Assembly (NCBI GenBank): GCA_964456395.1
Contig: CAYWAU010000002.1
Span: 1 to 37,626, forward strand
DNA length: 37,626 nt
Reading direction: 5' to 3'
Source: an uncultured Dehalococcoidaceae bacterium
Lineage (GTDB): Bacteria > Chloroflexota > Dehalococcoidia > Dehalococcoidales > RBG-16-60-22
In this document: positions 7,088 through 35,300 of the stretch, piece after piece
Numbering within the stretch: position 1 is the first letter of the stretch
Layout: each line of letters begins with the position of its first letter
The notes under the pieces: generated by a model
Told to the model about the DNA's origin: nothing
The model's input: the letters and a program-made list of their open reading frames with translations, nothing else
Database searches by the model: none
Made by a program: the position numbers and the translations under genes

Positions 7088-7089
7088 CT

Positions 7090-7210: not shown

Positions 7211-7230
7211 TGCTTATTCTGTTTTAGTCC

Positions 7231-15818: not shown

Positions 15819-15905
15819 ACTCACGTTGGCGTCACAATGAATGTCTGAATCCTCACAGAAAAATCAAAAGTGTGCATCATCTTAAGTAGTCTGGGGGAGC
15901 CAAGG

Positions 15906-15937: not shown

Positions 15938-15976
15938 AGTGCTGTTGCCTGTCTTCACGTGACAAGTGTTATATTA

Positions 15977-16675: not shown

Positions 16676-16747
16676 GCTAGCACCTCTCTTTCTGGTGAAG
16701 GACATCATACTCAGCAACGAGCGCGGTCTTTGGCTGGTTCCCTTTCT

Positions 16748-18586: not shown

Positions 18587-18707
18587 TTCTATTTACCGCT
18601 CATTGCAGAACTATCAATGGTTCTAAACAACTATAGTAATGAATCGCAATCAATCCGTCAAGTGTCCAAAAGAATTCGTGATTATGCTTAATGTCCGTCA
18701 ACATCTC

Positions 18708-20222
18708 CTACTTCTTCATAATAATTTCAAAAGTTATCATGCTCTCAACCTGGGTGGCTTCGGTCTCAGCACCCTCAGTTTGGACATTCCTTGCTTCATC
18801 TATCTCGGTAATGCGAACCTCAGAGAATGTCTCCTGCGCCTCTAAGGTTGTAGCATAGATTACAACCGTGAAGGGGCTATCGGTTTCCCCCTGCACGGCA
18901 ACCAGGTCAGTGTCTAAATCTATTGATGTAAAATGAGCCTGGGGTGGCAGAGCATCGGTCACCAGTTTCAGATTATTGGTGAAGTCACCCCGGCGGCTCA
19001 GTATGCTCTGGTGTCCATATCTCAGGGTTTCTATTCTGGCAGTTATCTCCCTGATGGTTTCCTCCGTTTTGTTTGCCTCCTCAATAGCGAGGTGAGCCAG
19101 ATTAAGTTCCCGGCTGACTCGGTGCAGTTCGTTTTGCAGGCGCGTGTTTTCAGCACCAAGCTGACTCTTGATCTGGTAGAAGGGGAACAGGAGGCCGATA
19201 GTAACTATCAGGAAAATACTTAGAAGTATATATCCCGTAGGTATCGGCTGGGCTCTGGTTTTGCGGTATTTTCCCGATAGTATGTTGATATTGATATCAT
19301 GGAAATGTGCATCTTCTCCTTTTACCGTAGTTTTCGGCGGCATCTTCTTCAGAGCCAGTCCCATATTGGCGGCGTATAAAGCAACGGGCAGGTCCGGCGG
19401 GAATTCCAATGGCGGGATTAGAGGTTCCACAGGGTATTCTATCTCAGCCTGGAGGAGTCCGCTAGTGGTAGCCTCGGCGGCCAGTTCGCCGGTCAGCAGC
19501 AAGGGTGTGGCTGGACTCAGGTGGTTATCCGGGTGGCTGCTCAGGTAGAAGGCTGCTGTTTTGGTTAGCTCATCGGCTAGGCGCCGGATATTGTCCTCGA
19601 GGGTGGCTCCTTCTCCTCTGGGACTTATGGTGTGCATGACCGTGGGAATGCCGTTGGCTATAAAGACAATATCGAAGCAGTCGGGCTCCAGGCTGGCAAT
19701 TATGGCATCTCCCCGGTTGGCGGCTCTGGCCAGCGCCAGTGGCTTCAAATCCATGAGATAGGGCTCCAGCCCGGCTACTGTCAGGGTCGCAATCATAGCA
19801 TCAATAAGGTTTCGCGGTACGCCCAGGACAAAGAAAGTCTGCTCGTCCTCTTTGCTCCTGATAGGCTGCCACGAAAGGTACAATTCATCCAGAGGCACCG
19901 ATATTTCTTTCCTGGCGGCGCGCTGGATAGCTTCCTCCAGAAGGGCGGGTTTCATCCGTGGCAGGTTCAGGAATCGGTAGGTGAAGGACAGACCGGTAAG
20001 GCTGGTGATTACCTTTTCTCTGGGTGCTTTTGCTGATTTAAACAGGGCATCAATAGCCTCACCGACAGCCTGTGGCTGCAGTATAAGTCCATCCCGGACC
20101 AGTCCCGACTTCAGGGGCAGGCTCTCCCACTTTTTTACCTGCCTGCCCTTAACCGTGAGGATTCTGATGCTGTCGGTACTGATACTTAGCGTAACATGCA
20201 TTTTTAAAAATACGCCTTTCAC
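18708..20222 (-). CDS. pilM: Type IV pilus assembly protein, PilM fused to a PilN-like transmembrane/coiled-coil module
   Basis: The N-terminal 300 aa look like an actin-like PilM ATPase fold (SIRILTVKG...GLVRDG.I......). They are followed by the TM helix ILLSIFLIVTIGLLFPFYQI, a coiled coil and a roughly 110-aa periplasmic-type domain like PilN. The start is GTG at 20222 or ATG at 20201. Confidence 0.75.
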   Translation of the reverse strand: MKGVFLKMHVTLSISTDSIRILTVKGRQVKKWESLPLKSGLVRDGLILQPQAVGEAIDALFKSAKAPREKVITSLTGLSFTYRFLNLPRMKPALLEEAIQRAARKEISVPLDELYLSWQPIRSKEDEQTFFVLGVPRNLIDAMIATLTVAGLEPYLMDLKPLALARAANRGDAIIASLEPDCFDIVFIANGIPTVMHTISPRGEGATLEDNIRRLADELTKTAAFYLSSHPDNHLSPATPLLLTGELAAEATTSGLLQAEIEYPVEPLIPPLEFPPDLPVALYAANMGLALKKMPPKTTVKGEDAHFHDININILSGKYRKTRAQPIPTGYILLSIFLIVTIGLLFPFYQIKSQLGAENTRLQNELHRVSRELNLAHLAIEEANKTEETIREITARIETLRYGHQSILSRRGDFTNNLKLVTDALPPQAHFTSIDLDTDLVAVQGETDSPFTVVIYATTLEAQETFSEVRITEIDEARNVQTEGAETEATQVESMITFEIIMKK

Positions 20223-20224
20223 CG

Positions 20225-20818
20225 CTACTCAGAGGTTGGAGGTTGAGTATAGATAGCCAGGTCCAGGCTGGCGTTTACGGGTACGGTTCCCTCGGGAGCG
20301 CTTTCTTCCCCGGATGGCTCAATTACTCTGGTAACGCTTAAATCCTCCACAATGAGCGTCGGAATCCCTCCTTTTTCCAGTTTGCTCAGGAAGCTGACCA
20401 TTTGTGTGAAGGTTCCCGCTACGGCTACATTTAACCGGAAAACAGAGTAGTCGTGGTCGCTAATGGCCTCTGTTGTCCGGGGTTGTGTTATCAGGGGTAT
20501 TGCCTTGACCTCGCATTCGTCGGCGAGCTTGAGGATGGTATTAACTATCCTGGTGCTGTTCATCTCGCCGGGGAATGTGCTCTGCTCGGCAGCCAGACTT
20601 GCCTGAACAGCCGACAACCGCGGCTCCAGGTCAACGGGAGGCTCCGGCATTTGCGCCAGAGTCTGGGTGGCGTCGGTGATTTGAGATGCCAGAGCCTCGT
20701 GCTCCGACCCCTTTTTCAGGTAGTCCAATCCGAGCCGGCAATAGGCCACAAGAAGGACAATAATTAATAGCGTTAGGAGTAATTTCCTGGTCTTCACTGG
20801 TGCCCCTCTTTTCTTCAT
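20225..20818 (-). CDS. pilO: PilO-like type IV pilus assembly protein
   Basis: 197 aa. A basic N-terminus is followed by a single TM (LLLTLLIIVLLVAYC), a coiled coil and a ferredoxin-like C-terminal region. It sits between pilMN and the minor pilins. Confidence 0.65.
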   Translation of the reverse strand: MKKRGAPVKTRKLLLTLLIIVLLVAYCRLGLDYLKKGSEHEALASQITDATQTLAQMPEPPVDLEPRLSAVQASLAAEQSTFPGEMNSTRIVNTILKLADECEVKAIPLITQPRTTEAISDHDYSVFRLNVAVAGTFTQMVSFLSKLEKGGIPTLIVEDLSVTRVIEPSGEESAPEGTVPVNASLDLAIYTQPPTSE

Positions 20819-20837
20819 TGCTGTTGACTGTTCTCCA

Positions 20838-21872
20838 TTATTCCCACGTTATGATACCCGTGCCGCCCTCAGGTTCAGGCATCACCAGGCAATCTGGATG
20901 TGGGGGATACTCTCCGGTATAGTTCTCATAGACATCGCCCAAGATATTCCCTTCGCGCACGATATTATTGATGGTTCCGGTGGCATAGACATCTTCGTAA
21001 ATACGAGCATTATTAGCCAGTTGAATCTTACTGGTAATACTGCCGGTGATATAAACATTGCCTTCAATCCTGGCGTTGTTATCAATGATAATAGTGGCTA
21101 TGCTGTTACCGATATAGACATCGCCTTTAATGATTGAATTGCCGCTAATATCAATATTGCCGGTAGTGTAGACACTGCCATAGATAACGGTGTTGTTCTC
21201 AAGATAGATATCGCCGCCGGCACAGACATTGCCGCCGACTTCAATGCTGCCGATTTCCGAGTTGTTATTGAGCGTGAGGTCCCCGCCCGCTGAGACATCA
21301 CCCCCGATGACGGCATTATTTGAAAGCTCCAGTTCGCCTTCAGCGACGACATCCCCGGTGACCTCGGCGTTATTACCCAGTGTGACATTTCCCGTGGCAT
21401 AGACGCTCCCGTCAACCTCAACATTGCCATCAATGCTGGCATCACCATCAATATAGACATCACCTTCGGTATCTTCATCAATGTCGCCATCGCTACTCCA
21501 GCCACCACCTCCTGACAGTACATAAGATTCAATTATGGTACTGTGTCCGTCGTCACTGGTGGCTGTGGCAGTGACCTCATATATAGATGAACCCAGGTTC
21601 TCGACAGAAACGGTCACTGTTTTGTTGTTTATGGTGAATTCCGGCAACGTCTCTGTCTCGCCCTCTGTCACTTCTAACTCTCCGCTCTGAAGGCTCCAGA
21701 TGGCATACTCAATGCCGGAATCACAGGAGTAAAGCTCGGTTATCCCCTGCTCATATACCCGAGAGCCAATCAGGCTGCTGCTGGCGTGGCCGAGGAATGG
21801 TGTTATCACCATTGTGCCTATGGCCAGAGCCAGCATGGCCAGGGGAAGAGCCTGCCCCTTTTCGCTATTCAT
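20838..21872 (-). CDS. PilX-like minor pilin fused to a bactofilin-like beta-helix repeat domain
   Basis: The N-terminus EKGQALPLAMLALAIGTMVITPFL is PilX_N-like (a G-x-A-L hydrophobic helix with no Glu5). Residues about 137-316 carry around 10 repeats of 17-21 aa, for example VYATGNVTLGNNAEVTGD / VVAEGELELSNNAVIGGD / VYTTGNIDISGNSIIKGD. The ATGA overlap with the upstream pseudopilin gene indicates co-translation. Confidence 0.65.
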   Translation of the reverse strand: MNSEKGQALPLAMLALAIGTMVITPFLGHASSSLIGSRVYEQGITELYSCDSGIEYAIWSLQSGELEVTEGETETLPEFTINNKTVTVSVENLGSSIYEVTATATSDDGHSTIIESYVLSGGGGWSSDGDIDEDTEGDVYIDGDASIDGNVEVDGSVYATGNVTLGNNAEVTGDVVAEGELELSNNAVIGGDVSAGGDLTLNNNSEIGSIEVGGNVCAGGDIYLENNTVIYGSVYTTGNIDISGNSIIKGDVYIGNSIATIIIDNNARIEGNVYITGSITSKIQLANNARIYEDVYATGTINNIVREGNILGDVYENYTGEYPPHPDCLVMPEPEGGTGIITWE

Positions 21873-22324
21873 TCTTCCTCCTCCGATGGCCGAAGATAAA
21901 CCTTATAGGTTCCATTGGCACTAACGTTGTCACGTCCCTCAGGGGATGAGGTTAAGGACATGGTAATAAGGCGGTTTTCGATGGAAAAATCGGCACTGGT
22001 AATATTCCGTGCCAGCGTCATCTGGTCGCCGCCAGCCGTACGGCGAAGCTCGGTGTCTGACAGATAATAGGTAATTGACGAGCTTTCGGAGATGGTCAGC
22101 AGCAACTCACCGTTGATGCTGGCAGTGCTGGCTCTCTGTCCGTCAAGGTTGAACCAGTGAGCGGCATTTTGCAGCTCGTGCATGGCGGTGAGCCTATCGT
22201 TGCCGTACTCGGTAACGGTAAGGATTTGATAGATGGCTGTGCCCAGAAAGCTGACAATAATTCCGGTGACGGCGACGGCTATAATCAGCTCCACCATGGT
22301 TAAACCCCGTTCATCCGACTTCAT
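21869..22324 (-). CDS. Prepilin-type N-terminal cleavage/methylation domain pseudopilin (PilW/GspJ-like)
   Basis: MKSDERG|LTMVELIIAVAVTGIIVSFL is a class III signal peptide with Glu5. 151 aa. The start overlaps the upstream stop (TAATG). Confidence 0.8.
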   Translation of the reverse strand: MKSDERGLTMVELIIAVAVTGIIVSFLGTAIYQILTVTEYGNDRLTAMHELQNAAHWFNLDGQRASTASINGELLLTISESSSITYYLSDTELRRTAGGDQMTLARNITSADFSIENRLITMSLTSSPEGRDNVSANGTYKVYLRPSEEEE

Positions 22325-22722
22325 TATCGATTCACCTTGTAGTCTTCAACTATTATTATGGTCTCGCTCTCCCGGTAGACAGTAACCGTTATTTTTTGTA
22401 TATCATCATCGGTGTCCGGGATAGAGGCAACCCCGACAGAGACGGTGTAACCTTCCGGTGTGTCCAAGGTGGGATAGGTTGTGGCTTCGGCGTCATAGGC
22501 ATGGCTTTTGGTGTATTCTAGCTGGGTCTGCACCAGGCTCTGTGCCACGACTTCCTCATCCTGCTTGCCGACGGCGATTGACCCTGCCGAAAGGGCGACG
22601 ACAAAGGCAACCACAGAGGTCCCTAGAACAGCCACGGCGACCAGCGTCTCTACCAGCCCCAGCCCCATCTGGTCTTGAGCCCGGTTTTTTACCCGTGCTA
22701 ATCTCTGTCTTATTGCCCCCAT
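22324..22722 (-). CDS. Prepilin-type pseudopilin (PilV-like)
   Basis: ...NRAQDQMG|LGLVETLVAVAVLGTSVVAF has Gly-1, Glu5 and a hydrophobic helix. 132 aa. Confidence 0.72.
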   Translation of the reverse strand: MGAIRQRLARVKNRAQDQMGLGLVETLVAVAVLGTSVVAFVVALSAGSIAVGKQDEEVVAQSLVQTQLEYTKSHAYDAEATTYPTLDTPEGYTVSVGVASIPDTDDDIQKITVTVYRESETIIIVEDYKVNR

Positions 22723-22744
22723 TTTCTTTACCTGCCATAAATAT

Positions 22745-23956
22745 TTAATGCATTGACCTCAGTATGGAGTACAGCGGCGTTATCATGGAGAGAGCCAGAA
22801 AAACAACGACCATCCCGATGATTACCGTCAAGGCGGGTTCTATCATGGAAGTAAGAACGTCAATCCTGCGGTCAACCCTCCTTTCATAAAAGTCGGCCAG
22901 GGTGGCCAGGGTAGTGTCAATGGTGCCGGTCTTCTCTCCCACGACTACCATCTCCACCAGCAGTCGGGGGAAGAGCGCAATCTCAGCCATTGGTTGAGAC
23001 AGCCCCTGTCCCTGGACCAGCTTATTTCTGACATCACTCAATGCCTGGCGGATAATCCGGTTCCTGGTGGTTTGAATGGCGATATCTATCACCTGGGGCA
23101 GGCGCAGTCCAGCTTTCAGCAGCATTGAAGCGGTTTGACAGAACTGTTGCACATTACGCTCAATATTGATGGTGCCGATTACCGGTATTTTCAGCATCAG
23201 CCGGTCCATTGCCTGCTTTGCCGAGGGCAGTCTCAGCCAGCCGGCAGTTGACATAATGATGATTAATAATCCACCCAGAATATAGAGCCCATTGCTGGTA
23301 ATGAAGTCGGTGATGGTGATGAGCAGCCTCGTCATCCAGGGCAGTTCCGCACCGAGAGAAGTGAATAGTGCCACCAGTGGCGGCAGGGCTACCGTGATAA
23401 GCAGGATGGATACCCCGACGGCCATAAGCAAGACAAAGGCTGGGTAGAGCATGGCGCGTTTTATTTTTTGGGTGCTGGCTGCCTGTTTTTCCATGTAGCT
23501 GGCGGCCTGCCTCAGTCCGAGTTCCAGGTTGCCTGCCTGTTCGCTGGCTTGAATCACCTGACAATAGGTGTGGGGGAATACCTGTGGATACTGGCTGAGT
23601 GCCTGGGAGAGAGAGATGCCTCCCTGGATTTCCTCGACCAGGCCGCCGATGATTCTTTTCAGGGCTGGCTTGGAAGCCTGTCCCTCAAGCAGTTGTAGTG
23701 ACGTGAGCAGGGTAACACCGGACTCAATCAGGGTGGCTAACTGGTTGGAGAAATCAAGCACATCCTGAGTCTTAATCCCAAAGAGGGTTGGTATCAGTCT
23801 TTCCAAACCAAGCCCCGGCGGCACTTCTTTCAGGCTGAGGATATGCTGGTACCCGGCGCGATATAGGACTCCCTCGGCCAGACTTTCCGAAGTGACTTCA
23901 ATCGTGCCCTGTACAACCTTTTTATCAGTTGTATAGGCTCTATATTTATAGGCCAT
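22745..23956 (-). CDS. pilC: Type IV pilus platform protein (GspF/PilC family)
   Basis: 403 aa with a duplicated T2SSF domain. It has three TM segments and ends ...GMVVVFLALSMITPLYSI. Confidence 0.9.
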   Translation of the reverse strand: MAYKYRAYTTDKKVVQGTIEVTSESLAEGVLYRAGYQHILSLKEVPPGLGLERLIPTLFGIKTQDVLDFSNQLATLIESGVTLLTSLQLLEGQASKPALKRIIGGLVEEIQGGISLSQALSQYPQVFPHTYCQVIQASEQAGNLELGLRQAASYMEKQAASTQKIKRAMLYPAFVLLMAVGVSILLITVALPPLVALFTSLGAELPWMTRLLITITDFITSNGLYILGGLLIIIMSTAGWLRLPSAKQAMDRLMLKIPVIGTINIERNVQQFCQTASMLLKAGLRLPQVIDIAIQTTRNRIIRQALSDVRNKLVQGQGLSQPMAEIALFPRLLVEMVVVGEKTGTIDTTLATLADFYERRVDRRIDVLTSMIEPALTVIIGMVVVFLALSMITPLYSILRSMH

Positions 23957-24024
23957 TATTCCCTCTTTAGTTGGCTTATATCAGGGTCTTTATCTACCTC
24001 ACCCCCTGTGTCCCCCTCTCATCG

Positions 24025-25737
24025 TTAGTTAATGGAGAATACACTGCGCAGAACCTCGCTCACTGATGTAATGCCTTCTTTTACCTTAAGCATCCCATCT
24101 CGTTTCATCGTTATCATCCCTTCGGCAAGTGCCTGTGCTTTAATCTCACCGGCACCAGCATTGTTACGTAACATCTTCCTGATATCCTCGCTCATGACCA
24201 GGAACTCGAAAATGCCGGTTCGGCCCCGGTAACCGGTATTGGCACAGAGGTTGCATCCGGTTCCGTGGTAAAATGTGGTGGCTTCCGGCACCAGTTCCTT
24301 TTCAAGAGCCTGCTGCTCTTCCGTTGATGGTTGGTAGGAGGTACGGCAGTGAGGGCAGATACGGCGAACCATGCGCTGGGCAACAACGCCGATAAGCGTT
24401 GATGAGATTGAGGCTGGTTCAACATCCAGGTCCATCAGTCGGAAGAGCACACCAACGGCATCATTGGCATGAATGGAAGAAAGAACTAGGTGGCCGGTGA
24501 GGGCGGCTTGAATGGCCGTGGTCACCGTGTCGGTGTCCCGTATCTCACCGACCAGAATAACGTCAGGGTCATGACGCATGATAGCCTTGAGACCGCTGGC
24601 AAAGGTAATTCCGGCCTTGAGGTTAACCTGAATCTGGTTAATGTCCATGAAGCTGTATTCAATGGGGTCCTCGATTGTCATGATGTTGCGCTCATTTCGG
24701 TCCAGTTCGCTTATTGATGCGTAAAGGGTGGTCGTTTTGCCGGAACCGGTGGGGCCGCCCGCCAGTATCATACCGAGCGGGCTCTTCAGCATCGGCCGGT
24801 ACCTCTTCAGAACATCGGGCAGAAAGCCAAGCTCGGCTAAAGTAAAGAGAGCCAGAGACTTGTCCAGAATCCGCAAGGTCACCCTCTCACCGTAGGGCGT
24901 TTCCATGGTGGCGACTCGAATATCGACTTCATTACTGCCCAGTTTGATTGAGAATTGTCCGTCCTGAGGGCGTCTTTGTTCGGAGATGTCCATATCAGCT
25001 AGAATTTTGACACGTGACACCAGTGACACGTGGGCACTGAGCGGCAAGGAGAACATATCGTGCAGGATACCGTCAATCCGGTAGCGAATCCTCAGCCGGT
25101 CTTCCTGTGGTTCAATATGGACATCCGAGGCTCTGTCCTTGACAGCCTGGGCAACCAGCAGGTCAAGGGTTTCCGCAATCGGGGTCCTGGCCGTAAGTGT
25201 CGAAGCGGTATCTGTTATTTTATCTCCAGAGACAGGGGCCATTTGGCTTACCTGTTTCTCTATTTCACCGCTTGACCTGTAGTTGAGGTCAATGGCTCGC
25301 TCAATGTCGGAGCGGACACCGAGGGCCACCTCCACCCTCATCTTCGCCTGAGTCTTAACGTCTTCAATGGTGTGGATGTCCTCCGGGTCAGCCATAACCA
25401 CTACTAGCGAGTCGTTGACTATGTCAAGGGGTATCAGGGCATGTTTACGAGCCATTTCTTCAGGGATGAGGCGAAGAGCCTGAGGCTGGATGGTGTGTCT
25501 CTTCAGGTCTATTAGCGGCAGGTTTAACTGAATGCTGAGCACGGTGGCCAGTACCTCAGCTTTGACCACCCCCTGGTTTATCAGAGTCTCACTGAGCTTC
25601 CCTCCCTGCTGCCGCTGCAGCGCCAGGGCGCTCTCCAGTTGTTCCGGGGTAATGAGGTTCTCCTCAACCAGCATTTCACCCAGGCTTTTTTTAGATGTCC
25701 TATCCGTGATAAAGGGTCTGGTATTATCTCTATCCAT
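24025..25737 (-). CDS. pilB: Type IV pilus assembly ATPase (GspE/PilB family) with an N-terminal T2SSE_N/MshEN-like domain
   Basis: Walker A GPTGSGKTT, Asp box, Walker B ILVGEIRD, His box, and a tetracysteine zinc motif CPHC...CNLC. Confidence 0.93.
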   Translation of the reverse strand: MDRDNTRPFITDRTSKKSLGEMLVEENLITPEQLESALALQRQQGGKLSETLINQGVVKAEVLATVLSIQLNLPLIDLKRHTIQPQALRLIPEEMARKHALIPLDIVNDSLVVVMADPEDIHTIEDVKTQAKMRVEVALGVRSDIERAIDLNYRSSGEIEKQVSQMAPVSGDKITDTASTLTARTPIAETLDLLVAQAVKDRASDVHIEPQEDRLRIRYRIDGILHDMFSLPLSAHVSLVSRVKILADMDISEQRRPQDGQFSIKLGSNEVDIRVATMETPYGERVTLRILDKSLALFTLAELGFLPDVLKRYRPMLKSPLGMILAGGPTGSGKTTTLYASISELDRNERNIMTIEDPIEYSFMDINQIQVNLKAGITFASGLKAIMRHDPDVILVGEIRDTDTVTTAIQAALTGHLVLSSIHANDAVGVLFRLMDLDVEPASISSTLIGVVAQRMVRRICPHCRTSYQPSTEEQQALEKELVPEATTFYHGTGCNLCANTGYRGRTGIFEFLVMSEDIRKMLRNNAGAGEIKAQALAEGMITMKRDGMLKVKEGITSVSEVLRSVFSIN

Positions 25738-26155
25738 TCACGTTCTCCTGGGTGGGTGCCTTCTGCTTCTTTTTTGCCAGCAGGCTTTCTACGTGGTTTA
25801 CTATATCGGCAGGTGCGGCGGGTTTTGACAGGTAGTCGTCGGCACCCACTTTCAGTCCGGTATCCTTGTCTATTTCCTGGGCTTTCGCTGAGAACATTAG
25901 AATAGGCAGTTGGGCAGTATCGGGTTCGGACCGCAGGCGGTGGCATATCTCAAAGCCGTCCATGCCCGGTAACATGACATCCAGAATGATAAGGTCAGGT
26001 GCTTCATTGTGCGCTTTCCGTATCCCTTCCAGTCCATTGGATGCTGTAAGCACCTGGTAACCCTCATACCTGAGGGAATAGTCAACTAATCTCAATGTAG
26101 CCGGGTCATCTTCAATAACCAGTATTTTCTTATCCACGGTCATCTCCTTTTCCAT
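25730..26155 (-). CDS. Stand-alone REC (CheY-like) response regulator, translationally coupled to pilB
   Basis: ILVIEDD...DLIILDVMLPGMDG...ILMFSAK...GADDYLSKP, with no output domain. Its stop overlaps the pilB ATG (ATGGATAG, 25730-25737). The start is uncertain (ATG 26155, ATG 26143 or GTG 26137) and overlaps the upstream kinase stop. Confidence 0.85.
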   Translation of the reverse strand: MEKEMTVDKKILVIEDDPATLRLVDYSLRYEGYQVLTASNGLEGIRKAHNEAPDLIILDVMLPGMDGFEICHRLRSEPDTAQLPILMFSAKAQEIDKDTGLKVGADDYLSKPAAPADIVNHVESLLAKKKQKAPTQENVNG

Positions 26156-27953
26156 TTAGAGGCAGGGTGAAACTAAAGGTGCTGCCTTCACCGGCTCGGC
26201 TCACCGCCCAGATATGTCCACCATGTGCCTCAATAATCTGCTTTGAGATATAAAGCCCCAGTCCCGTCCCCCCCCTGGCCAGCTTATCCTCAGCCCGGTA
26301 GAACCTCTCAAAGAGGTGCGGCATGGCTTCTTCAGGAATGCCGATACCCCGGTCGGTTACCTGGAATGAAAGCTCCCCGTTCCGACTCTCTGTCTTAGCC
26401 GTGACACTGCCGCCGGGGTCGCTGTACTTGATAGCGTTGCTGAGCAGGTTGATGACCACTTGCGCCAGTCGGTCGCCATCTGCCTCTATCTCAGGTAGTT
26501 TCGCCGGTATATCTTCGTTGAGTTCAATATTCTTGTCGTGGGCCAGGCTGTGGAAGCTCTTTATGGCGTCAACAATGGTATCCCTTATCGGCAGGAGCCG
26601 CTTATTGATTTGAAATCGGCCGGCTTCAAGTCGTGATAAATCCAGCAGACTGTTAATGAGGTTGCCGAGGTGCTGGCTTTCTCTATCAATAATCTGCAGG
26701 AATTCCTGCTGGGTCTCGGCGTCAGGCACTTTACCCTGGAGAATCAATTTGGTAAAGCCTGCAATTGACTGGAGTGGCGTGCGCAGCTCATGTGAGACGT
26801 TGGAGAGGAATTCGGATTTCATCTGGTCGATTTTACGCAGCTTCTCCTCCCCCCGCTTTCGCTCGGTGATGTCAATTGTCACGGAGATTATACATGGTTC
26901 ACCGCCAATATTGATTGGCTCGGCTGAGAAAAGCCATACGCGTATCTCGCCTGACTTCATACGGATGTCGAATTCTTCATTGTTGACCCTGCCCTGTTCC
27001 TTCAGTATCTGTGTCATTCTGGTGCGGTCCTCTGCCTTTGCCCAGAGACCAAGTTCAGTTGAACTGTGGCCAATCACCTCTTCATGGGTGTAGCCGGTAA
27101 TACGGGTGAAACTGTCATTAACTTCAATAAATCTGCCGTCTTTAAGCGTGGTGATGGCGACTGCATCAGGACTGGAGCGAAAGGCTTTGGAGAACTTTTC
27201 CTCTGACTCTTGCAATGCCTCCACAGCCCGCTTTAACTCGGTGATGTCGCGCAGTGATGCCAGGTAGGCGGGTTCGCCTTCCCAGTCTATATCCACCACA
27301 CGCATCTCAGCTACGTTTTTCTCTACACCTTGGCGGGTGATTTCAATCTCTGATGTCTTACCGCCCTTCAGGGGAAAATCAAACGGTTTGTTCAGGAGCT
27401 CTTTCTTCTTGCGCCCGAGGAGATATTCTGCGGCCGGGTTGGCGAAGAGGATGTGCCTGTTCTTGCTGATAACGATGATGGCATCGGCGTTCTTATCTAG
27501 AATTTTGCAGAGATTGGCTTGGACTTTCCATATCTCCTGTGCATACTGCTCCAGTTCCCTCTGCAGTTGAGACCGTTCAATGGCGTAGAAAAGGGCGCGT
27601 TCTACCTGGTGGTCCTCCATTTGTCCTTTCACCAGATAGTCTTGGGCACCCAGCTGAACCGCCTTTATAGCCAGCGCTTCATCATCAAAGCCGCTCAGTA
27701 TCACCACCGGTATGTGTGGTGCCTCACAGAGAATCTTACTGATGGTGTCGAGCCCATGGCTATCAGGCAGACCGAGGTCCGATAAAACCAGGTCAGCCCC
27801 ATCTCTGGCAAGGTATTCCAGCCCCTCTTTAAGCCTTGTTGCTGGTGTTACCGTGAACTGACTCTTACCGGACCTAGCCAGTTTCCTCCGTATCAACTCG
27901 GCGTCATCCGGGTTATCTTCAATAAGCAAGATTCTAATCGTTTTGTCTTCCAT
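26130..27953 (-). CDS. Hybrid sensor kinase: N-terminal REC, 2 PAS, HisKA, HATPase_c
   Basis: The REC domain reads IRILLIEDNPDD...DLVLSDLGLPDSHG...VVILSGF. The H-box is VSHELRTPL, and the N and G boxes are NLLSNAIKYS, DRGIGI and GTGLGLYI. I use the ATG at 27953; the ORF-track TTG at 27974 is an alternative. Confidence 0.9.
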   Translation of the reverse strand: MEDKTIRILLIEDNPDDAELIRRKLARSGKSQFTVTPATRLKEGLEYLARDGADLVLSDLGLPDSHGLDTISKILCEAPHIPVVILSGFDDEALAIKAVQLGAQDYLVKGQMEDHQVERALFYAIERSQLQRELEQYAQEIWKVQANLCKILDKNADAIIVISKNRHILFANPAAEYLLGRKKKELLNKPFDFPLKGGKTSEIEITRQGVEKNVAEMRVVDIDWEGEPAYLASLRDITELKRAVEALQESEEKFSKAFRSSPDAVAITTLKDGRFIEVNDSFTRITGYTHEEVIGHSSTELGLWAKAEDRTRMTQILKEQGRVNNEEFDIRMKSGEIRVWLFSAEPINIGGEPCIISVTIDITERKRGEEKLRKIDQMKSEFLSNVSHELRTPLQSIAGFTKLILQGKVPDAETQQEFLQIIDRESQHLGNLINSLLDLSRLEAGRFQINKRLLPIRDTIVDAIKSFHSLAHDKNIELNEDIPAKLPEIEADGDRLAQVVINLLSNAIKYSDPGGSVTAKTESRNGELSFQVTDRGIGIPEEAMPHLFERFYRAEDKLARGGTGLGLYISKQIIEAHGGHIWAVSRAGEGSTFSFTLPLNGKGDDRG

Positions 27954-28008
27954 TTTACGGCAGCTGGTTGTCAATTTTACTCGCGATTGGTATATGTATA
28001 ATATTCAC

Positions 28009-28455
28009 TTAAGGTTGATGTGGTGTTTCATTTATGAGCAGCCAGTAGAGTCCTATCTGGCGCACGGCTTCAACGAACTGGTTAAAGTCCACCGGTTTAC
28101 GGACGTAGCTATTCGCCCCCGACTTGTATCCGCTGACAAGGTCCTGTTCTTCTTTTGACGAGGTGAGAATGACCACCGGGATAAGCTCGGTGCGCTCATC
28201 GGCGCGCAGACGTTCCAGTACCTGCAGTCCGTCCACTTTGGGCAGTTTCAAATCAAGCAAAATAATCCTTGGCGTGTCATTAGCATTATGGTCAGCGTAG
28301 GCTCCGGTGCCGAAGAGGTAGTCCAGCGCTTCCGCACCGTCACGGGCTATCGCCACACCGTTGGCGATATTGTTTTTTCTGAATGCCCGCAGTGTCAGTT
28401 CAACATCGTCAGGGTTGTCTTCCACCAGCAGTATTGTGTCTCCTTTTGCCTTCAT
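28009..28455 (-). CDS. Stand-alone REC response regulator (Rcp1-like)
   Basis: ILLVEDNPDDVELTLRAF...IILLDLKLPKVDG...VVILTSS...GANSYVRKP. 148 aa. A GGAGG RBS is present. It lies 12 nt downstream of the membrane kinase. Confidence 0.87.
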   Translation of the reverse strand: MKAKGDTILLVEDNPDDVELTLRAFRKNNIANGVAIARDGAEALDYLFGTGAYADHNANDTPRIILLDLKLPKVDGLQVLERLRADERTELIPVVILTSSKEEQDLVSGYKSGANSYVRKPVDFNQFVEAVRQIGLYWLLINETPHQP

Positions 28456-28467
28456 TTCTGGCCTCCT

Positions 28468-31065
28468 TTAGCTAAGCGTAAAGTAGAAGGTGGCACCTTT
28501 CCCCGCAGTCCCTTCCGCCCAGACACTGCCACCGTGGCGGTGAATGATGCGTTGTACCGTAGCCAGACCAATGCCGGTGCCGGGGAACTCGGTGGTGTCG
28601 TGCAGGCGCTGGAAGGCGCCAAACAGCTTGTTGGCATAGGTCATGTCAAAGCCGGCACCGTTGTCCCGTATAAAGTAAGCTTTCTTGCCGCCGTTCCGGG
28701 TAGCACCGAACTCTATTCTTGCCTGCTGGCGCTTGCCGGTAAATTTCCAGGCATTGTCGAGCAGGTTCTCCAGTAAAACTCGCAACAGCTGGTGGTCTCC
28801 GCTGGTGGTTAGACCTTTGGCGATGACAAACTCAGCCTGGCGTTCCGGCTGTGTCTGCTGAAGCCTGGCGGCAATCTCCTTGGCCAGTGCACTCAGGTCT
28901 AACTTTTCTTTACGCATTTCGCTTCTGGTCAGGCGGGACAGCTTCAGCAAACCATCAATGAGTTCCCCCATTTTTTGACTGGCAGCGCGCAGGCGGGTCA
29001 GGTAGTCATTACCCTGCTCATCAAGCTTATCCGGGTAGTCTTCCAGCAGTGCCTGACTGAAACCGTCAATGGTCCTGAGGGGTGCTCGCAGGTCATGCGA
29101 GACGGAGTAGCTAAAGGCTTCTAGCTCTTTGTTGGTGGCCGCCAGTTGGGTGCTGGAGTGTTCCAGATTAGACAGCGCCTTTTTTATTATTTCTTCATGC
29201 TGCTTGCGCTCGGTAATGTCCCGGCACACGCAGAAAATCAGCTTTTCTCCCGCGAATACAGCCGCATTGGTGCTTATTTCAACGTCATAGATGGTACCAT
29301 CTTTGCGTCGGTGTTGCGTCTCGAAGTGGTCGCCGGTCTCATCAACACTCCGGAGCATATCCTGCACTTGCTCACGTGTAAATTGAAACTCCCAATCCCA
29401 CACCTGGAGCTGATAGGCTTCTTCCAGGGAGTATCCGAGCATCTCGGCAAATCGCTGGTTAGACTCATATACGTTGCCATTCTGATCAAGGACAACAATC
29501 CCGTCTCTGGACTGCTCGACTAGGATGCGCCGCCGGATTGCTTCGTTAGCCAGAGCTTCCTCCGCCTGCTTGCGCTCGGTGATATCATTAATGACGCTAA
29601 GTATACACGGTTTATCACCAATGCTAATTATCTCGGCTGAGAACTGTACTATCTGTATCTCACCTGATTTGTTACGGAGATGGACTTCTTCATTCTGAAC
29701 TCTGCCGTGTTCCCTCAGTGTCTGAAATACTCTGTCGCGCTCCTCTGCCTTTACCCACATATTGAGATCAGCAGCACAGCGTCCGATGAGTTCTTCACGG
29801 GTATAGCCGGAAATACGGTGACTGCTTTCATTACATTCAATTATCGTGTCATCTTCAAGCGTATTGATGCTGATGGACAAGGGGCTGGAACGGAAGGCTT
29901 TGGAGAACTTTTCCTCCGACTCCCGCAAAGCCTGCTCTGCCCTCTTGCGCTCGATAGCGATGGCAGCAATACGAGCTGACCACTCCAGCACCCTGAGGTT
30001 GTCGGCATCCGGCTCACCCACCTTGTTGCTATAGTTGGCTATGGTGCCGAGCAGGTCTCCATTGGATGAGATTATGGGTTGTGACCAGCAGGAGAGCAGG
30101 CCGTTGTTGGTTGTCCGCTTGACAACTTCCTCCAATGGTTTAAAGAGAGGGCTGTTCTCAATGTCCGTGACGATTACCCGCTCCTTCAGATAAGCCGCAG
30201 TCCCACAGGAACCCGCACTCGGTCCAATAGGTATCCCGTCTTCAAATAGCTCATTGTAATCATCGGGTAAACTTGGGGCGGATGCTAGAGCCAGCCGTTC
30301 TCTTGAGGAATCAAAGAGCAGCACAGAGCCTTTGATAGAAGGGTCATGATATTCGCCCAAATGGACAATGGCGTCCAGCAGTTCGCTTAATTCCGCCCCC
30401 TGCCCTAAAAGGGTAAGCACGTAATTCTCATCATTTTGTAGCTGCTCCCCTTTTTGGCGCTCGGTGAGCTGGTGCTCAATTTCGGACTGGTCATATTGGC
30501 GGACTGCAGTAATCGCTATTACCAAAAAGAATATCATGAAGATAAAAGACAGTGGTTGCATTAGGCTTGCTGATGATATATCAAGTAATGGTACGAGAAG
30601 TACGATGGCAAGCAAGTAACTGACGGCGACAATTATGGCATGACGCAGAGATAGCATCAAGCTGGAGATAAGCAATGGCAGAGTCAGCCATAATATGTTA
30701 TTCTGAATATTCGCTTCGTTAGAACTGGAGAGAATCATGATAAGAATTAAGATGCCTGGGATGCTGACCACGGATGCCGTTGCCTGTCTGTAGTATCCGG
30801 TACGGTTGAGACTGTAGCCGATAGCATGGACAGCAGCAATAGCCAGCAGAATAAACCATGAGCTGTCGCCGGCATTCTTTGATACCACTGCCCCCATCAG
30901 GGCACTGATAGTAACAAGTAGCATAAAAGCTGATAGCCATGCCGCACGTCGGCGTTGCTTTTCCTCCATACTGGCTGATGGTTCAATTATCCAGCGTAAG
31001 GCAGTGTAGATATGCCGGAAGACGTTGTCTTTTATACACTGCCTGCGCAGTAACCCGGTTGCCAT
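28468..31065 (-). CDS. Membrane sensor histidine kinase (about 6 TM, GAF, 2 PAS, HisKA, HATPase_c)
   Basis: Six hydrophobic helices fall in residues about 40-190. A GAF-like region covers about 215-370. Two PAS modules each end in DITERK. The H-box is VSHDLRAPL, with G-boxes DNGAGF and GTGIGLA. A GGAGG RBS lies 5 nt before the ATG at 31065. Confidence 0.9.
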
Positions 31066-31161
31066 AATTTCCTCCTGATACTAATAAAAGAAGAGACGGG
31101 GGTTATCTTTATAGGCTTAACTTCCATTTACTTACTGCTTGCCGCATTAAGCGGTGAGCTA

Positions 31162-31524
31162 CTAATAACCATCATCTGCCTGCGTAACCAGTCCGGTAGT
31201 ACTGCAGGAATAGGTTCCTTTGGTTGTCGCCGTCCGCAGGTAGTTGGGGTACAGGGCATTACCGGTAGGGAAAGCCGACATGTTACTGGTTGCCGAGGTA
31301 TCCGTAACCGAAGTCAGGCTGTTCTTGGCCATCATGGTATCCATGGCGGTCTGGACAGTAACCAGTTCGGCCTTGGCGGCTTCTGTCTGGCCTTCGCCAG
31401 CGAGTCCGGTTACATTGGGCAGGACGACCGCCGCCAGTATCCCCAGAATGGCGACAACGATAAGCAGTTCTACCAGGGTGAAGCCTTTGCCATCACGATT
31501 AATTCTTTTTAGTAACTTTGGCAT
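31162..31524 (-). CDS. pilA: Type IV major pilin (prepilin)
   Basis: MPKLLKRINRDGKG|FTLVELLIVVAILGILAAVVLP is a canonical class III signal peptide with Phe1/Glu5. The mature protein is about 106 aa. The start is set at the ATG at 31524, preceded by GGAGG; the ORF-track start at 31566 adds 14 unlikely residues. Confidence 0.87.
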   Translation of the reverse strand: MPKLLKRINRDGKGFTLVELLIVVAILGILAAVVLPNVTGLAGEGQTEAAKAELVTVQTAMDTMMAKNSLTSVTDTSATSNMSAFPTGNALYPNYLRTATTKGTYSCSTTGLVTQADDGY

Positions 31525-31638
31525 AATACTGCCTCCTGCATCATTTTTTAGGTTTAACCTTCTCATTGTTCCCCTCCTAGGAGATTGCTAACCTGAATAT
31601 TTAAGTGGATTCATTCTATAAAATCTGTTTACCATACT

Positions 31639-31902
31639 TTATGGTTTTCTGCCTGGTTGCATAGCGCTACGGTTTTTGTTGTATATTTCAGGACGTAAGT
31701 ATGGTACTGGCATATTGTATTTTGTTAGGAATTCGGAGAAATCGTTTTGCTCTATCCGGTAATGACCACTGGGGAGCCTGAACGCTGGCAACTGTCCGGT
31801 GGTAATCCAGCGCAGTACTGTCGTGTTGCTGACCCCGCAACGCTTGGCAATAAAACCTACAGAAATATATTCCGGTTCCCACTGCTCAGATGTATTCTGC
31901 AA
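31639..31902 (-). CDS. Small helix-turn-helix DNA-binding protein (excisionase/MerR-like HTH family)
   Basis: ISVGFIAKRCGVSNTTVLRWITTGQLPAFRLPSGHYRIEQNDFSEFL matches the excisionase-family HTH pattern (....a..lgvs..tv.rwi..G.lpa.r.g...ri...d...fl). A TTG start follows GGGAGG with a 5-nt spacer. Confidence 0.72.
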   Translation of the reverse strand: MQNTSEQWEPEYISVGFIAKRCGVSNTTVLRWITTGQLPAFRLPSGHYRIEQNDFSEFLTKYNMPVPYLRPEIYNKNRSAMQPGRKP

Positions 31903-32254
31903 AATAACCTCCCGGCAACATTATGGCTGCTATCTCAATGCAATTGGCTTTGTCCTTCCGTTAAGCTGCATTTAGGCTGATAGCAGGCTCCTGATTTTGA
32001 GTTTAGCCAAAGTCATTACTTGATACTTCGCTGGGAAACTGTTGCTGTTAGCGCATTTAATGCTAGCAGTGATTGGTACGTTTGAAGTATATGAGAGTAG
32101 AGTCACAATAATATCACAGATTGTTGGCAGAAGATTACAGAAATATCACAAGTAATGTTCAGTTTCATATACTTTTACGGAAATGAACAGGAATAATACC
32201 AGGGATATTAGCTGCTCGGAGAGGGTCAATGAGGCTAGCTCCCGGTCCCGCCCA

Positions 32255-32295
32255 AACTGACTTCCCCTCCCCCGGAAGGGAAAGGGAAGTCAGTT
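32255..32295 (-). terminator. Stem-loop downstream of the giant surface-protein gene
   Basis: A perfect 12-bp inverted repeat, AACTGACTTCCC (32255-32266) / GGGAAGTCAGTT (32284-32295), lies 20 nt after the stop codon at 32315. No classical U-tract follows. Confidence 0.45.
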
Positions 32296-32314
32296 AGCAC
32301 ATGGGTAATTTCTC

Positions 32315-35300
32315 TTACGAGGCTTTTCTGCCGGCAACCGTTCGCCAGATGACTATGCCAATGACAATACCGACAGCGACTATAACGATGATGAGCCACA
32401 GGCTAATCTGTAAAGGCGCTTTAGCCGGTGGTGCTGAGGGGGTGGGGTGTAATGCAGATGGCGCTGGTGCCCCGGGTACTGTCGGTTGTTCCTCAGATGG
32501 TGCCTCAGAGGGTGTCTGTTGTACCTCGGTTGGCGCCAATGTCACCCCGGGTTGTGTGGGCTGTGCCTCTGATGGTATTGCCGGCGCCTCGGAAGGCGTG
32601 GGCTCCTCTGCTTCTTCTGGCTTGGCTGCTGCCTCCCTGACGATTAAGGTGGCGGAGAGACCGTTAACATCTACCGCATAGTTACCGGCATTGTGCGGCT
32701 TTAGGGTAAAGGTTACCTGTTGACTGGCCTGTCCCGCCAGATTTACTTCCTCAATGGCGGTCACTTCCCCGTTTATCATAAGGGTCACCTCGTGACTGCC
32801 AGCAAGGTCGCCGGTATTGGCGATAGTGGCACTGATAGTAACGCTTTCATCGGGGTAGACCACCGCCGGAGATATGTCAAAGGCGCTGATTTCAAAGGTG
32901 GCTGAAGCGTTGTGGGCCATAACAGTAAAGACGGTAAAGTGGCTTATTGGTGCGGTAATAGTGTTGCCGGTCGGGTCAACCGTGGTGTCCTCAAGCTCAA
33001 CCCAGTTTCCGGCTTGCCACGTAGCGATGACCAGATTCTCCTCAGCAACCCCAACGGGTAACAGGGATTCGTCGTAAGTGAATGACAGGCTTATCGGCGG
33101 GTCAAAGGTAGCGCCGTCGGGGTAGAGGTCGTAGACTAGACCGATAATGCTGACATCTGTGGGTGGGGCTGAGGGTGCCGACTTCGGTTTTATAGATATG
33201 TTATACAAGGGCTGGTCCATTCGGTTTTTGCCGATGGTATTTTTAGGTATGTCAAGCTCAACTATGCCATCTACGGACTCGGCGGTAACGTCGTCTATGA
33301 TTCTGCCGGTGGTGGTTATGGATTCGGATAAACTGGTAACCCCACCGCCGCCGCCGCCGCTACCACCGCCGCTGAATTCAGTGACTACGGTAGATGGCGG
33401 TGGTGCCGGTGTGGCGATTAATGTCCAGGAACTGAAGTGGTCTGGTGAGGCGTAGGCTATCTTGTTGGTAGTGTCTATGGTTGTGGTTACTTCCGTCCAG
33501 GTGCCGGTACTGGGGTTGAGGTAGGCTACCTTGAGGTTCTCTTCGTCAAAACCGGCCGCCGTAAGATTGTCGCTGTCGAAGGGGAAGCCGAGGTCCCACT
33601 CTACGCCGTCTACCGGTGCGCTTGACTCAACATTGGTAACACGTCCCAGCATGTCCGAAGCCCCTTCCGGTAGTGAGCCGAGGGTATCCGGGGCTACATC
33701 AACCTTAGCCGGAGTAATGACGCTGGCTTCGGAACCATCGTTTATAATGCCGTTGATGGTGATTTTGTCACCCCATGGAGGTTCCATGTCCACCGGAGTG
33801 CTGGTAGTAATGGTCGTCGGGTCTAAGCGAGGAGATGCGTAGGGAGTAATCGTCGTGCCTGAAGGTGTGCAGATGACCATCACCTCGGCACTGCGCTCCA
33901 GAGTCCCACTCGTGCCCGTTATCTTGAATGTCCAGCTACCGGGTTGAGTTCCAGCCGCCACATTGAAAATGACCGCTTTCTTACCCAGCCCGGTGGTGGC
34001 TGAAGGCGTTACATCGCCTGTTGTGGCGCTAACTTCTGATGGCCAGGCTGCCGCCGGGTCGCTCATGGTGACGGCCAGGTTCACGGTACCGGTGAAGCCA
34101 TTAATAGCGGCTGCAGTGACCGTGGTATTGCCATTGGAGTTCGGGCTGATGGGTACCGTGTTCGGAGCCAGGCTGATTGAGAAATCAGGTGTATTTGTCG
34201 GCGGCACCACTTTGGCGGTGATTTTGCGCGTTTGGGTGATGGTGCCGCTTGTGGCTGTTATCACCAGCGGGTATCTGCCCACGGTGGCGCCCGCCGGGAC
34301 ATTGATGGTCAGCGTGGCTGTCGTGGGAGTGGCGATGCTCGGGGTTACCGTGGCCGACGGTGAGATGTTGGCGGTGGCATCGGCTATCGCACTGAGCCCG
34401 GAGACACTCAGGGTAACCGCTGACTGGAAGCTGCCCAGCGGTTCAATCTTGGTGGTAATCGTGCTGGAACCGTCTTTGGGGATATCCACTTTTTGCGGGC
34501 TCGCATAGAGTACGAAGGCGTTGACCGCCGATGGCTTGAGCCCGAAGGGCCTGTCTATGATAATGCCGCTGGTGGCTCCGGTGACGCTGACCGGGTGAAT
34601 ACCGGCTGTCACCGAAGGCGCTGTTATGGTAGCAGTGAAGGTGCCGTCCTGGGCTACGGTGATGGTTGCCGGTATGGTCGTGATGCTTGTACCGGCGAAG
34701 ATTGCGGTTACAGTCTCGCCGGCGGTGAAGCCCGAGCCGGAGAGTCTTATATCGGTATCGGCGGGACCGCTCATCGGCGAGATGACCAGGCTGGCTCCGG
34801 GGGAGTTTACCATCAGACCCAGCGGGACGGCTCGGAAGATAGTGCCGGTTTCCGCTTCAAGGGCGATGTCATAGGGTCCTATTGGTGTCCCTGAGTCAAC
34901 ATCTATCAAAGTTGTAATAGTTAGGTCTTCACCGGGTATGGGTGTCAGCGCCGTCGGGGTGATAACCTCCCTGATTCCTCCCGGCGTTCCCGAAAATTTG
35001 CCGATGGTGTTGCCATTAGTATCCTTGAAGGTGGCGGTAACGCCTGGTGCTAGGTGTCCCACACTGAAGCTTACTGCCTCCTTGAATCCATTCTTGGAGC
35101 TCAGGGTCAGGGTGATGGTGCCGCTCTCACTCTGGACTATCTCAAGGAACGGCGGGGAGACGTTGAGGAAGAAATCGGCATTTGTTGCCGGGACGATGCT
35201 GAAAGTATTCTTGGAGGCCATTGCCCCATCGGAGGCTTTAATTACATAGCTTCCCGGCGGCACCTGGCCGGCTTCGGGGATGGTAATCTCTGTAGCCCAG

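Follow-up and report, generated by a model that had tools for sequence, protein, structure and literature searches.

A receiver gene joined to pilB in the type IV pilus locus of uncultured Dehalococcoidales suggests that pilus assembly is switched directly

How might a type IV pilus be controlled when receiver genes encoding no output domain are lodged between the gene of its major pilin, pilA, and that of its assembly ATPase, pilB? The question is raised by a 37,626-nucleotide stretch of DNA from an uncultured Dehalococcoidaceae bacterium (positions 1 to 37,626 of contig CAYWAU010000002.1, assembly GCA_964456395.1), hereafter called the window. It carries the type IV pilus locus of a monoderm, uncultured member of the Dehalococcoidales, with a built-in, dedicated two-component cascade. 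To our knowledge, most of what has been learnt about type IV pilus control comes from Proteobacteria, Myxococcus and cyanobacteria, and we know of nothing described for the Chloroflexota. A first-pass annotation of the window had described a four-gene phosphorelay cassette between pilA and pilB, ending in a stand-alone receiver (REC) protein tightly coupled to pilB.

We analyzed the pilus gene string, which lies on the minus strand of this Dehalococcoidales window, using a list of its open reading frames (ORFs), Pfam scans and the junction sequences. These gave the order pilA, HK1 (a membrane sensor histidine kinase), REC1 (a stand-alone receiver), HyHK (a hybrid kinase with an N-terminal receiver), REC3 (a second stand-alone receiver) and pilB (Table 1), and the gene order, domains and gaps first reported agreed with them almost to the base. 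The gap of 12 nucleotides between HK1 and REC1 contains an AGGAGG motif. For the next two genes, the starts and gaps given earlier stood as listed ORFs but other start codons are likelier. From its TTG start (27974), HyHK is separated from REC1 by 34 nucleotides; since its orthologues start about 7 residues ahead of the REC domain, the likelier start is the ATG at 27953 (MEDKTIRILLIEDN), which leaves a gap of 55 nucleotides. Public gene calls begin REC3 at GTG 26137 (135 amino acids, P0001), and this codon, not the start of the longest ORF, is likely to be the true one. It overlaps the stop codon of the kinase (GTGGATAA, 26130-26137). Exact-sequence searches with the 141-amino-acid form of REC3 and with PilB matched no contig. 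As had been noted, pilB and REC3 share 8 nucleotides where the ATG of the one and the TAG of the other overlap (ATGGATAG, 25730-25737), and the HyHK/REC3 and REC3/pilB junctions have an identical 8-nucleotide NTG-GAT-AR overlap geometry.

The tight coupling of the terminal receiver to pilB was borne out by related genomes. A PilB scan with one genome per species provided 43 loci from Dehalococcoidales/Dehalococcoidia metagenome-assembled genomes (PilB 72-86% identical), whose ORFs were assigned with BLASTP and with small hidden Markov models for receivers and kinases. In every Dehalococcoidales locus with upstream DNA (42/42), the gene directly 5' of pilB encodes a REC3 orthologue (65-87% identical), these loci being phylogenetically related and not independent events. 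The locus L040 is cut and lies outside this count, and the apparent exception of L017 came from an over-long ORF call. By comparison, a receiver was found 5' of pilB in none of 37 outgroup loci (PilB about 40-45% identical), which were chosen by peptide patterns, are labelled mostly as Patescibacteria groups or "uncultured Gammaproteobacteria" and have the order pilB-pilT-pilC-pilA. The adjacency of REC3 and pilB exceeds chance, and the two genes stayed joined while their junction and the upstream genes were remodelled many times. REC3 adjoins pilB even where the pilA-pilB interval lacks a kinase (L033, L034), and the pair is kept in those loci of this more distant group where the third kinase of the window, HK3, and the OmpR-type regulator that follows it were undetected as a pair in the available flank (L027, L031, L034, L038).

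The junction itself is also conserved. In about 20 loci it reads cAGGAGaaaGTGaGTGGATAG, with a Shine-Dalgarno sequence in the C-terminal codons of REC3, 8-9 nucleotides ahead of a GTG or ATG start that overlaps the stop codon by 8 nucleotides. The remaining loci have REC3/pilB overlaps of -14 or -4, or gaps of 2-36 nucleotides. Production of REC3 and PilB as a single frameshift product was considered and rejected, because this geometry varies (-14, -8, -4, +2 to +36 nucleotides) and no fused orthologue was found. The mean identity of REC3 to the window protein (77.4%) is close to that of PilB (79.3%), so that the constraint on this receiver is comparable to that on the motor. Mean identities were 78.8% for the OmpR-type regulator (17 loci), 76.3% for REC1, 73.2% for PilA, 67.9% for PilC, 58.2% for HyHK and 53.2% for HK1.

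In agreement with the claim that it has no output domain, REC3 consists of a receiver only according to Pfam (Response_reg over residues 11-122, with about 10 residues ahead of it). It is a canonical, phosphorylatable receiver of the single-domain regulator type, with the phospho-acceptor pocket (DD, D, T/S, K) intact: all 46 sequences compared (46/46) keep D16, D17, D59, S89, Y108, K111 and P112 unchanged. REC3 is nearest in sequence to OmpR/PhoB-family and PleD receivers (Bacillus subtilis PhoP 1MVO, E 9e-36). Its NCBIfam PhoB and PleD matches are far under the cut-offs, and its names in databases are generic only ("response regulator", "PhoP", "hypothetical"). In all, 1887 homologues of REC3 were counted at E <= 1e-20.

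Whereas REC3-pilB is constant, the genes upstream of it are not. In the window and about 19 loci (architecture A), we observed the order pilA-HK1-REC1-REC-kinase-REC3-pilB. In architecture B (L012, L037, L023 and probably L039), a single kinase without REC stands between pilA and REC3, and this kinase is a membrane protein with five transmembrane (TM) segments where the whole protein is seen. Architecture C is reduced to pilA-REC3-pilB (L033, L034). In architecture D, the protein adjoining pilB is a REC-MinD fusion of 378-391 amino acids. What stands before the fusion differs between loci: an additional stand-alone REC3 paralogue in L027 and L038, one kinase in L028, the complete two-kinase cascade in L081, and pilA itself in L031, L036 and L043. 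The two-kinase, three-REC cascade, which had been presented as one hard-wired unit, was thus not recovered as such: relatives have two, one or no kinases, and of the two synteny patterns proposed as a check, a receiver 5' of pilB held throughout (42/42) but the kinase-REC-kinase-REC order only in architecture A. What is conserved is not the four-gene cascade but REC3-pilB together with a single cognate kinase core.

The way in which these modules vary together suggests how they are wired. Wherever HK1 and REC1 are encoded (19/19 loci), the terminal kinase has an N-terminal REC, and in the four complete loci that lack them it never does (0/4). Such a pattern is expected if the HyHK core and REC3 are an ancestral cognate pair, and if the HyHK receiver is a control port for HK1, with REC1 as the second substrate of HK1. 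In the translation of HyHK (REC 15-121, two PAS, HisKA 385-452, HATPase 499-607), the H, N, G1, F and G2 boxes are all intact. The size of this kinase varies from 372 to 1376 amino acids among loci and its PAS domains from zero to many; the DHp signature EFLSNVSHELRTPLQSI.GFTKL is kept in 35 orthologues, those of the single-kinase loci included, and differs from the corresponding DLLATVSHELRTPLATIKGYSTMI of HK3 and SVSHDLR[AS]PL of HK1. HyHK is presumed to be the cognate kinase of REC3.

HK1 is a variable upstream input layer, present in about 19 related loci and missing from the others. The window protein has five to six hydrophobic segments in residues 44-188, a GAF domain (226-372), two PAS, HisKA (649-713) and HATPase (756-864); its H-box is SHDLRAPL. 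Among loci, HK1 ranges from 275 to 1812 amino acids with a 7TM, 2-TM, 5-6-TM or no membrane domain. The membrane module is HisKA_7TM in L009 (2454-5030), two TM segments in L006 and L007, and five to six in the window, and L014 and L020 have no such module, so that what the cascade senses depends on the lineage. REC1 retains the key residues of a receiver (acceptor Asp, T/S and K) and always co-occurs with HK1, of which it is presumably the cognate receiver or a sink. The HK1 type and the REC1 sequence resemble what we take to be the phytochrome Cph1/Rcp1 subtype. The five receivers are 25-48% identical to one another, values from which kinase partners could not be told apart.

As Pfam scans of the cassette proteins and their neighbours found no histidine phosphotransfer (HPt) domain, the system is a kinase cascade or multi-kinase network and not a His-Asp-His-Asp phosphorelay; the latter term, used in the first-pass annotation, holds in a loose sense only. 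The N-terminal position of the HyHK receiver likewise makes it an input domain, not a relay domain. The three window kinases have one PAS module in common (53-61% identical; HK1 about 372-505, HyHK 244-382, HK3 121-259), whereas their catalytic cores are far less similar (29-35% identical). This suggests either a common ligand or recent domain shuffling.

The reading towards which we lean, with modest confidence, is that HyHK phosphorylates REC3 and that phosphorylated REC3 (REC3-P) acts by contact on the pilus machine, most likely on PilB, with HK1 and REC1 as an optional input and with HK3, the OmpR-type regulator and a small HTH_17 protein serving transcription. HyHK would phosphorylate REC3 on Asp59. 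Since REC3-P has no output domain, we propose that it acts by direct contact with the pilus assembly machine, the PilB ATPase being its most probable target, and that it would switch on or off either the activity of PilB or the recruitment of PilB to the PilC/PilM platform. REC3 and PilB would be made from one mRNA through coupled translation. In the lineage of the window, HyHK would have lost its own membrane sensor and gained in its place an N-terminal receiver under the control of HK1 with its GAF and PAS domains, and REC1, as the second substrate of HK1, would be a sink or a connector. Control of transcription at the locus would probably be a separate matter, falling to HK3 and the OmpR-type regulator as well as to the HTH_17 protein. 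We infer the kinase-receiver pairings, PilB as the target and the sign of the effect. It had been argued that control must act by protein contact because none of the receivers has an output; this overlooked the OmpR-type regulator with its kinase and the HTH_17 protein, whose presence in the gene string means that the locus owns DNA-binding regulators.

Several points weigh against this reading. The adjacency and coupling of REC3 and pilB are evidence of co-expression, not of binding, and the target could be PilC, PilM, PilT or something beyond the locus. Because the same string also encodes an OmpR-type regulator, and a kinase whose H-box is similar, REC3 could act by competing for phosphate. 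Co-transcription is deduced only from gaps and overlaps, as the promoter/terminator scan was uninformative, and since the outgroup is mostly Patescibacteria and pattern-selected, the count of 0/37 does not cover all phyla.

The circuit could, for instance, be wired differently while its output, REC3 acting on the pilus machine, remained the same. In Myxococcus xanthus, the redCDEF operon encodes two histidine kinases alternating with two response regulators (HK-RR-HK-RR), without output domains (PMC2755868). If the Dehalococcoidales cascade worked as a similar "four-component" system, HK1 would phosphorylate both REC1 and REC3, and REC1 would pass phosphate to HyHK or control it, HyHK being mainly a phosphatase of REC3-P. 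The two systems have in common a single operon with the order kinase-receiver-kinase-receiver, no outputs and a terminal single-domain regulator, and the second gene of L081 encodes a dual receiver like RedD, which is not the case in the window. In contrast, Red sets developmental timing and is unlinked to pilB, and RedE cannot autophosphorylate and has no N-terminal REC. The intact boxes of HyHK make this wiring less likely, as do the one-kinase loci, in which the HyHK-type core is the sole kinase adjoining REC3, and the H-box subtype of HK1 (SHDLR.PL), which is unlike the PhoR-like type that would fit an OmpR/PhoB-like REC3. We therefore judge a Red-like circuit unlikely.

The phosphate competition mentioned above leads to another explanation, in which REC3 and REC1 are sinks or competitors for phosphate and, by way of HK3 or HyHK and the OmpR-type regulator, tune transcription of the locus, the place of REC3 next to pilB reflecting co-expression only. 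That the OmpR-type regulator and HK3 end the same gene string speaks for it, as do the 36-37% identity between the OmpR/PhoB-like REC3 and the receiver of this regulator, and the SHELRTPL H-box and 61%-identical PAS domain common to HyHK and HK3. The residues following the phospho-His nevertheless differ between these kinases (QSIAGFTKL in HyHK, ATIKGYSTM in HK3), and REC3-pilB persists both in those loci of the more distant group in which the HK3/OmpR pair was undetected in the available flank and in the loci whose pilA-pilB interval has no kinase. The fusion of REC3 orthologues to a TadZ-like domain moreover points to a structural or positional role. Taken together, a role as a phosphate sink or competitor seems quite improbable. 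Finally, the cascade could control a target other than the pilus, such as the giant surface protein encoded upstream or general physiology, and stand in the pil operon for co-expression only. PAS/GAF multi-kinase networks are abundant and promiscuous, and sensor parts are shuffled between these relatives, which would suit such a role. The position of REC3 directly before pilB is invariant in 42 loci despite the remodelling upstream, and the Shine-Dalgarno sequence and overlap at their junction are conserved, which makes a non-pilus target very unlikely.

The REC-MinD fusions speak for the proposed action of REC3 on the pilus machine. They adjoin pilB in L027, L028, L031, L036, L038, L043 and L081, and their receiver is 67-74% identical to REC3; in L081 the fused receiver is closer to REC3 (69%) than is the neighbouring stand-alone REC (60%). 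All canonical phospho-site residues of the receiver are kept in the fused orthologues. The C-terminal half is MinD/ParA-like (Pfam AAA_31, CbiA and ParA; sub-threshold NCBIfam matches to MinD and a CpaE homologue), with a degenerate P-loop, G[ST]K[ER]GVGTTT, in which Thr replaces the lysine of GK[ST] in Walker A. These proteins form a small and discrete family of 60 clusters, all with E < 1e-68, some of them auto-annotated "pilus assembly protein CpaE" by JGI, and every REC-MinD locus examined lies next to a PilB-type ATPase. An AlphaFold2 model of the fusion (51-sequence alignment, mean predicted local distance difference test score 79.9) had as its best whole-chain match in the PDB the entry 3FKQ, an "NtrC-like two-domain protein" of Eubacterium rectale (E 3.6e-13), which we take to be TadZ; MinD, FlhG and FleN matched the C-terminal half of the model. 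When the MinD part was compared by sequence with PDB chains, TadZ was not among the significant matches.

In Tad pili, the ATPase depends for its polar placement on TadZ/CpaE, by which it is positioned or recruited and whose gene directly precedes its own (PMC11407121; bioRxiv 10.64898/2026.07.08.737194). Its receiver is atypical, and ParA/MinD-type TadZ is described as unique to Tad systems (bioRxiv 10.64898/2026.07.08.737194). Like TadZ/CpaE, REC3 has a receiver fold at its N-terminus and a gene immediately 5' of that of the pilus ATPase, and in a sister lineage its orthologue has the MinD-like C-terminal domain with a degenerate P-loop and 3FKQ as top structural match. Unlike them, REC3 of the window has no MinD half, REC3 and its fused orthologues have canonical receivers, and the partner ATPase is of the PilB/GspE type with an MshEN domain, not a TadA/CpaF in a tad/cpa locus. 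We raise tentatively, as a rather doubtful possibility, that REC3, along with the orthologues fused to MinD, corresponds to TadZ/CpaE but is competent for phosphorylation and serves a PilB-type (type IVa-like) monoderm pilus, in which the kinase cascade would set, via a true receiver, where or when the ATPase docks on its platform. If so, the family could show the atypical receiver of TadZ arising from a working response regulator, and it would run counter to the restriction of this type of TadZ to Tad systems.

The contact that we propose between REC3 and PilB has precedents. EmvR of Xanthomonas oryzae is an output-less receiver that binds PilB and inhibits its ATPase activity (PMC11973254), and DrdR of X. 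campestris is an output-less receiver that binds PilB and stimulates this activity (PMC13507683). Both resemble REC3 in being receiver-only proteins with a functional phospho-acceptor Asp, and their contact with PilB is the mechanism proposed here. They differ in that they are orphans of diderm Proteobacteria, unlinked to pilB, whereas REC3 belongs to a monoderm member of the Chloroflexota, shows translational coupling to pilB and has dedicated kinases in the operon; DrdR has two REC domains and REC3 one; and PilB binding was shown for EmvR and DrdR, whereas for REC3 it is a prediction. In cyanobacteria, PATAN-REC proteins bind PilB1 (bioRxiv 10.1101/2021.06.11.447907), and a phosphomimic of Rre6 binds PilT2. 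PilG/PilH of the Pil-Chp system, PixG/PixH, PixE and Rre6 thus have in common with the proposed REC3 that they are CheY-like or receiver-containing proteins steering type IV pilus motors by contact. However, they are served by CheA-type kinases with methyl-accepting chemotaxis proteins (MCPs) and CheW, some of them with PATAN domains, whereas REC3 would be fed by HisKA kinases.

REC3 was not assigned to Pil-Chp, the PATAN-REC group or PilS/PilR. CheA, CheW and MCP domains were not found in the scanned ORFs of the window, and membership in Pil-Chp was rejected, as there is no ChpA-type CheA kinase, PilJ MCP or PilI CheW. The PATAN-REC group (PixG/LsiR/TaxP2) was rejected because REC3 has no N-terminal PATAN domain. 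PilS/PilR is likewise a two-component system encoded beside pil genes; it was rejected because the window scans found no sigma54-activator domain and the sole DNA-binding response regulator is OmpR-type. PilR is a sigma54 activator acting on pilA transcription, and its nearest analogue here is the OmpR-type regulator with HK3, not the cassette.

In the literature searched, we found no description of the REC3-pilB arrangement for Dehalococcoidia or Chloroflexi. The suggestion that the architecture is undescribed thus stood for this group but not for the mechanism, for which EmvR, DrdR and the PATAN-REC proteins are precedents, nor for the gene order, known from RedCDEF. Undescribed in the literature searched are the operon-encoded, translationally coupled form in monoderm Dehalococcoidales, its exchangeable kinase layers and the TadZ-like fusions beside a PilB-type motor; the proposed mode of action is of an already known kind (EmvR, DrdR, PixG), of which this is a new, hard-wired variant. 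The arrangement suggests that pilus assembly is switched directly, a mode of control so far undescribed in the phylum. Dehalococcoidales are mostly uncultured, the relatives studied here being environmental metagenome-assembled genomes, and pili are plausible tools in them for attachment, DNA uptake and cell-cell contact. The locus offers a compact model, with a receiver genetically fixed to the motor gene, a candidate kinase identified by co-variation, an exchangeable upstream sensor layer and a natural fusion of the receiver to a TadZ-like positioning domain. If contact between REC3 and PilB is real, output-less receivers would control PilB not only as orphans, in a few cases from Xanthomonas and cyanobacteria, but also as part of an operon module in monoderms, and the result could bear on the origin of TadZ/CpaE.

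Table 1. Features of the pilus gene string, in 5' to 3' order on the minus strand (positions in the window).
Feature	Position	Strand	Evidence and remarks
HTH_17 protein (MerR/excisionase-like, small, DNA-binding)	31639-31902	-	Pfam HTH_17 E 1e-9; 5' of pilA
pilA-like major pilin	31162-31566	-	Pfam N_methyl E 2.3e-9; NCBIfam IV_pilin_GFxxxE
HK1, membrane sensor histidine kinase, 865 amino acids	28468-31065	-	GAF, two PAS, HisKA, HATPase
REC1, REC only, 148 amino acids	28009-28455	-	Pfam Response_reg E 1.7e-20
HyHK, cytoplasmic REC-PAS-PAS-HisKA-HATPase	26130-27974	-	Pfam domains
REC3, REC only, 141 amino acids	25730-26155	-	Pfam Response_reg E 1.8e-30
Translational-coupling junction	25730-25760	-	GGAG Shine-Dalgarno within last REC3 codons; pilB ATG overlaps TAG
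PilB/GspE-family assembly ATPase	24025-25737	-	Pfam T2SSE E 1e-125; N-terminal MshEN E 1.8e-20
PilC platform protein	22745-23956	-	Pfam T2SSF E 3.5e-59
Minor pilin 1	22324-22722	-	Pair with minor pilin 2: N_methyl and weak ComGF matches
Minor pilin 2	21869-22324	-	Pair with minor pilin 1: N_methyl and weak ComGF matches
Beta-helix protein, 344 amino acids, N-terminal TM	20838-21872	-	Bactofilin-like Pfam match
PilO-like protein	20225-20818	-	
PilM-PilN fusion, 504 amino acids	18708-20222	-	
HK3, third kinase, PAS-PAS-HisKA-HATPase	16748-18586	-	H-box DLLATVSHELRTPLATIKGYSTMI
OmpR-type DNA-binding response regulator	15977-16717	-	Pfam Response_reg and Trans_reg_C
ORF of 179 amino acids without Pfam match	15244-15783	-	Between OmpR-type regulator and REC4
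REC4, further stand-alone receiver	14294-14758	-	Pfam Response_reg E 2.6e-31; orthologues in 5 loci

Beyond pilB, the string continues on the same strand with pilC, the minor pilins, the beta-helix protein, the PilO-like protein, the PilM-PilN fusion, HK3, the OmpR-type regulator, the 179-amino-acid ORF and REC4 (Table 1). No secretin gene was found in the locus. PilA has a prepilin leader followed by GFTLVELL, and PilB scored 540 bits against the NCBIfam PilB profile, which is under the cut-off. The order of the two minor pilins is kept in all loci, and a gene matching the beta-helix protein (237-515 amino acids) lies between them and PilO wherever the downstream flank reaches. In about half of the related loci (L001, L003, L010 and others), a PilT-like retraction ATPase of 353 amino acids is encoded between pilMN and HK3; it is absent from this place in the window, where tblastn with the L001 PilT matched only PilB. 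PilB passes the NCBIfam MshE-related cyclic di-GMP motif (63.2 bits for a cut-off of 38; residues 19-70, 25528-25683), so that a second, nucleotide-based input is possible; in our reading, copy 1 of the motif has Ser and Asn in place of the canonical Arg and Gly. The window contains no GGDEF or EAL gene.

As for transcription, HK3 is kept 3' of pilMN or pilT in most two-kinase loci, and the OmpR-type regulator is likely its transcriptional output. The HTH_17 protein, whose orthologues lie 5' of pilA in at least 15 related loci, often in two copies, is a candidate transcriptional regulator of the locus. Its small gaps and overlaps suggest that the whole string is co-transcribed. A scan of positions 14000-32400 for promoters and terminators gave counts at or near chance (23 vs 17.2 and 18 vs 18.0 expected from shuffled sequences), and this uninformative consensus scan contained no minus-strand terminator inside the cassette. 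RNA folding of the pilA-HK1 intergenic region (z-score 0.13) gave no sign of a terminator or attenuator, and the pilA upstream regions aligned across loci were too divergent to show regulator binding sites. Rfam detected no cyclic di-GMP or other riboswitch near the pil genes, its only match being a cobalamin riboswitch elsewhere.

Directly upstream of the HTH_17 and pilA genes, we observed a gene for a protein of 1721 amino acids (32315-37480, minus strand) with long repeated segments and one C-terminal TM helix (1692-1710). Orthologues are found at the same position in L012 (73% identical), L015 and L042, and it is possibly an adhesin or an S-layer protein whose gene has its place beside those of the pilus. 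The cobalamin riboswitch (RF00174, 33.8 bits, 7080-7221, minus strand) stands ahead of a B12 salvage operon (269-7053, minus strand) encoding a btuF-like binding protein, a FecCD permease, an ABC ATPase, cbiB, a cobD-type aminotransferase, cobT and cobS, and the operon and its riboswitch are typical of corrinoid-dependent Dehalococcoidia.

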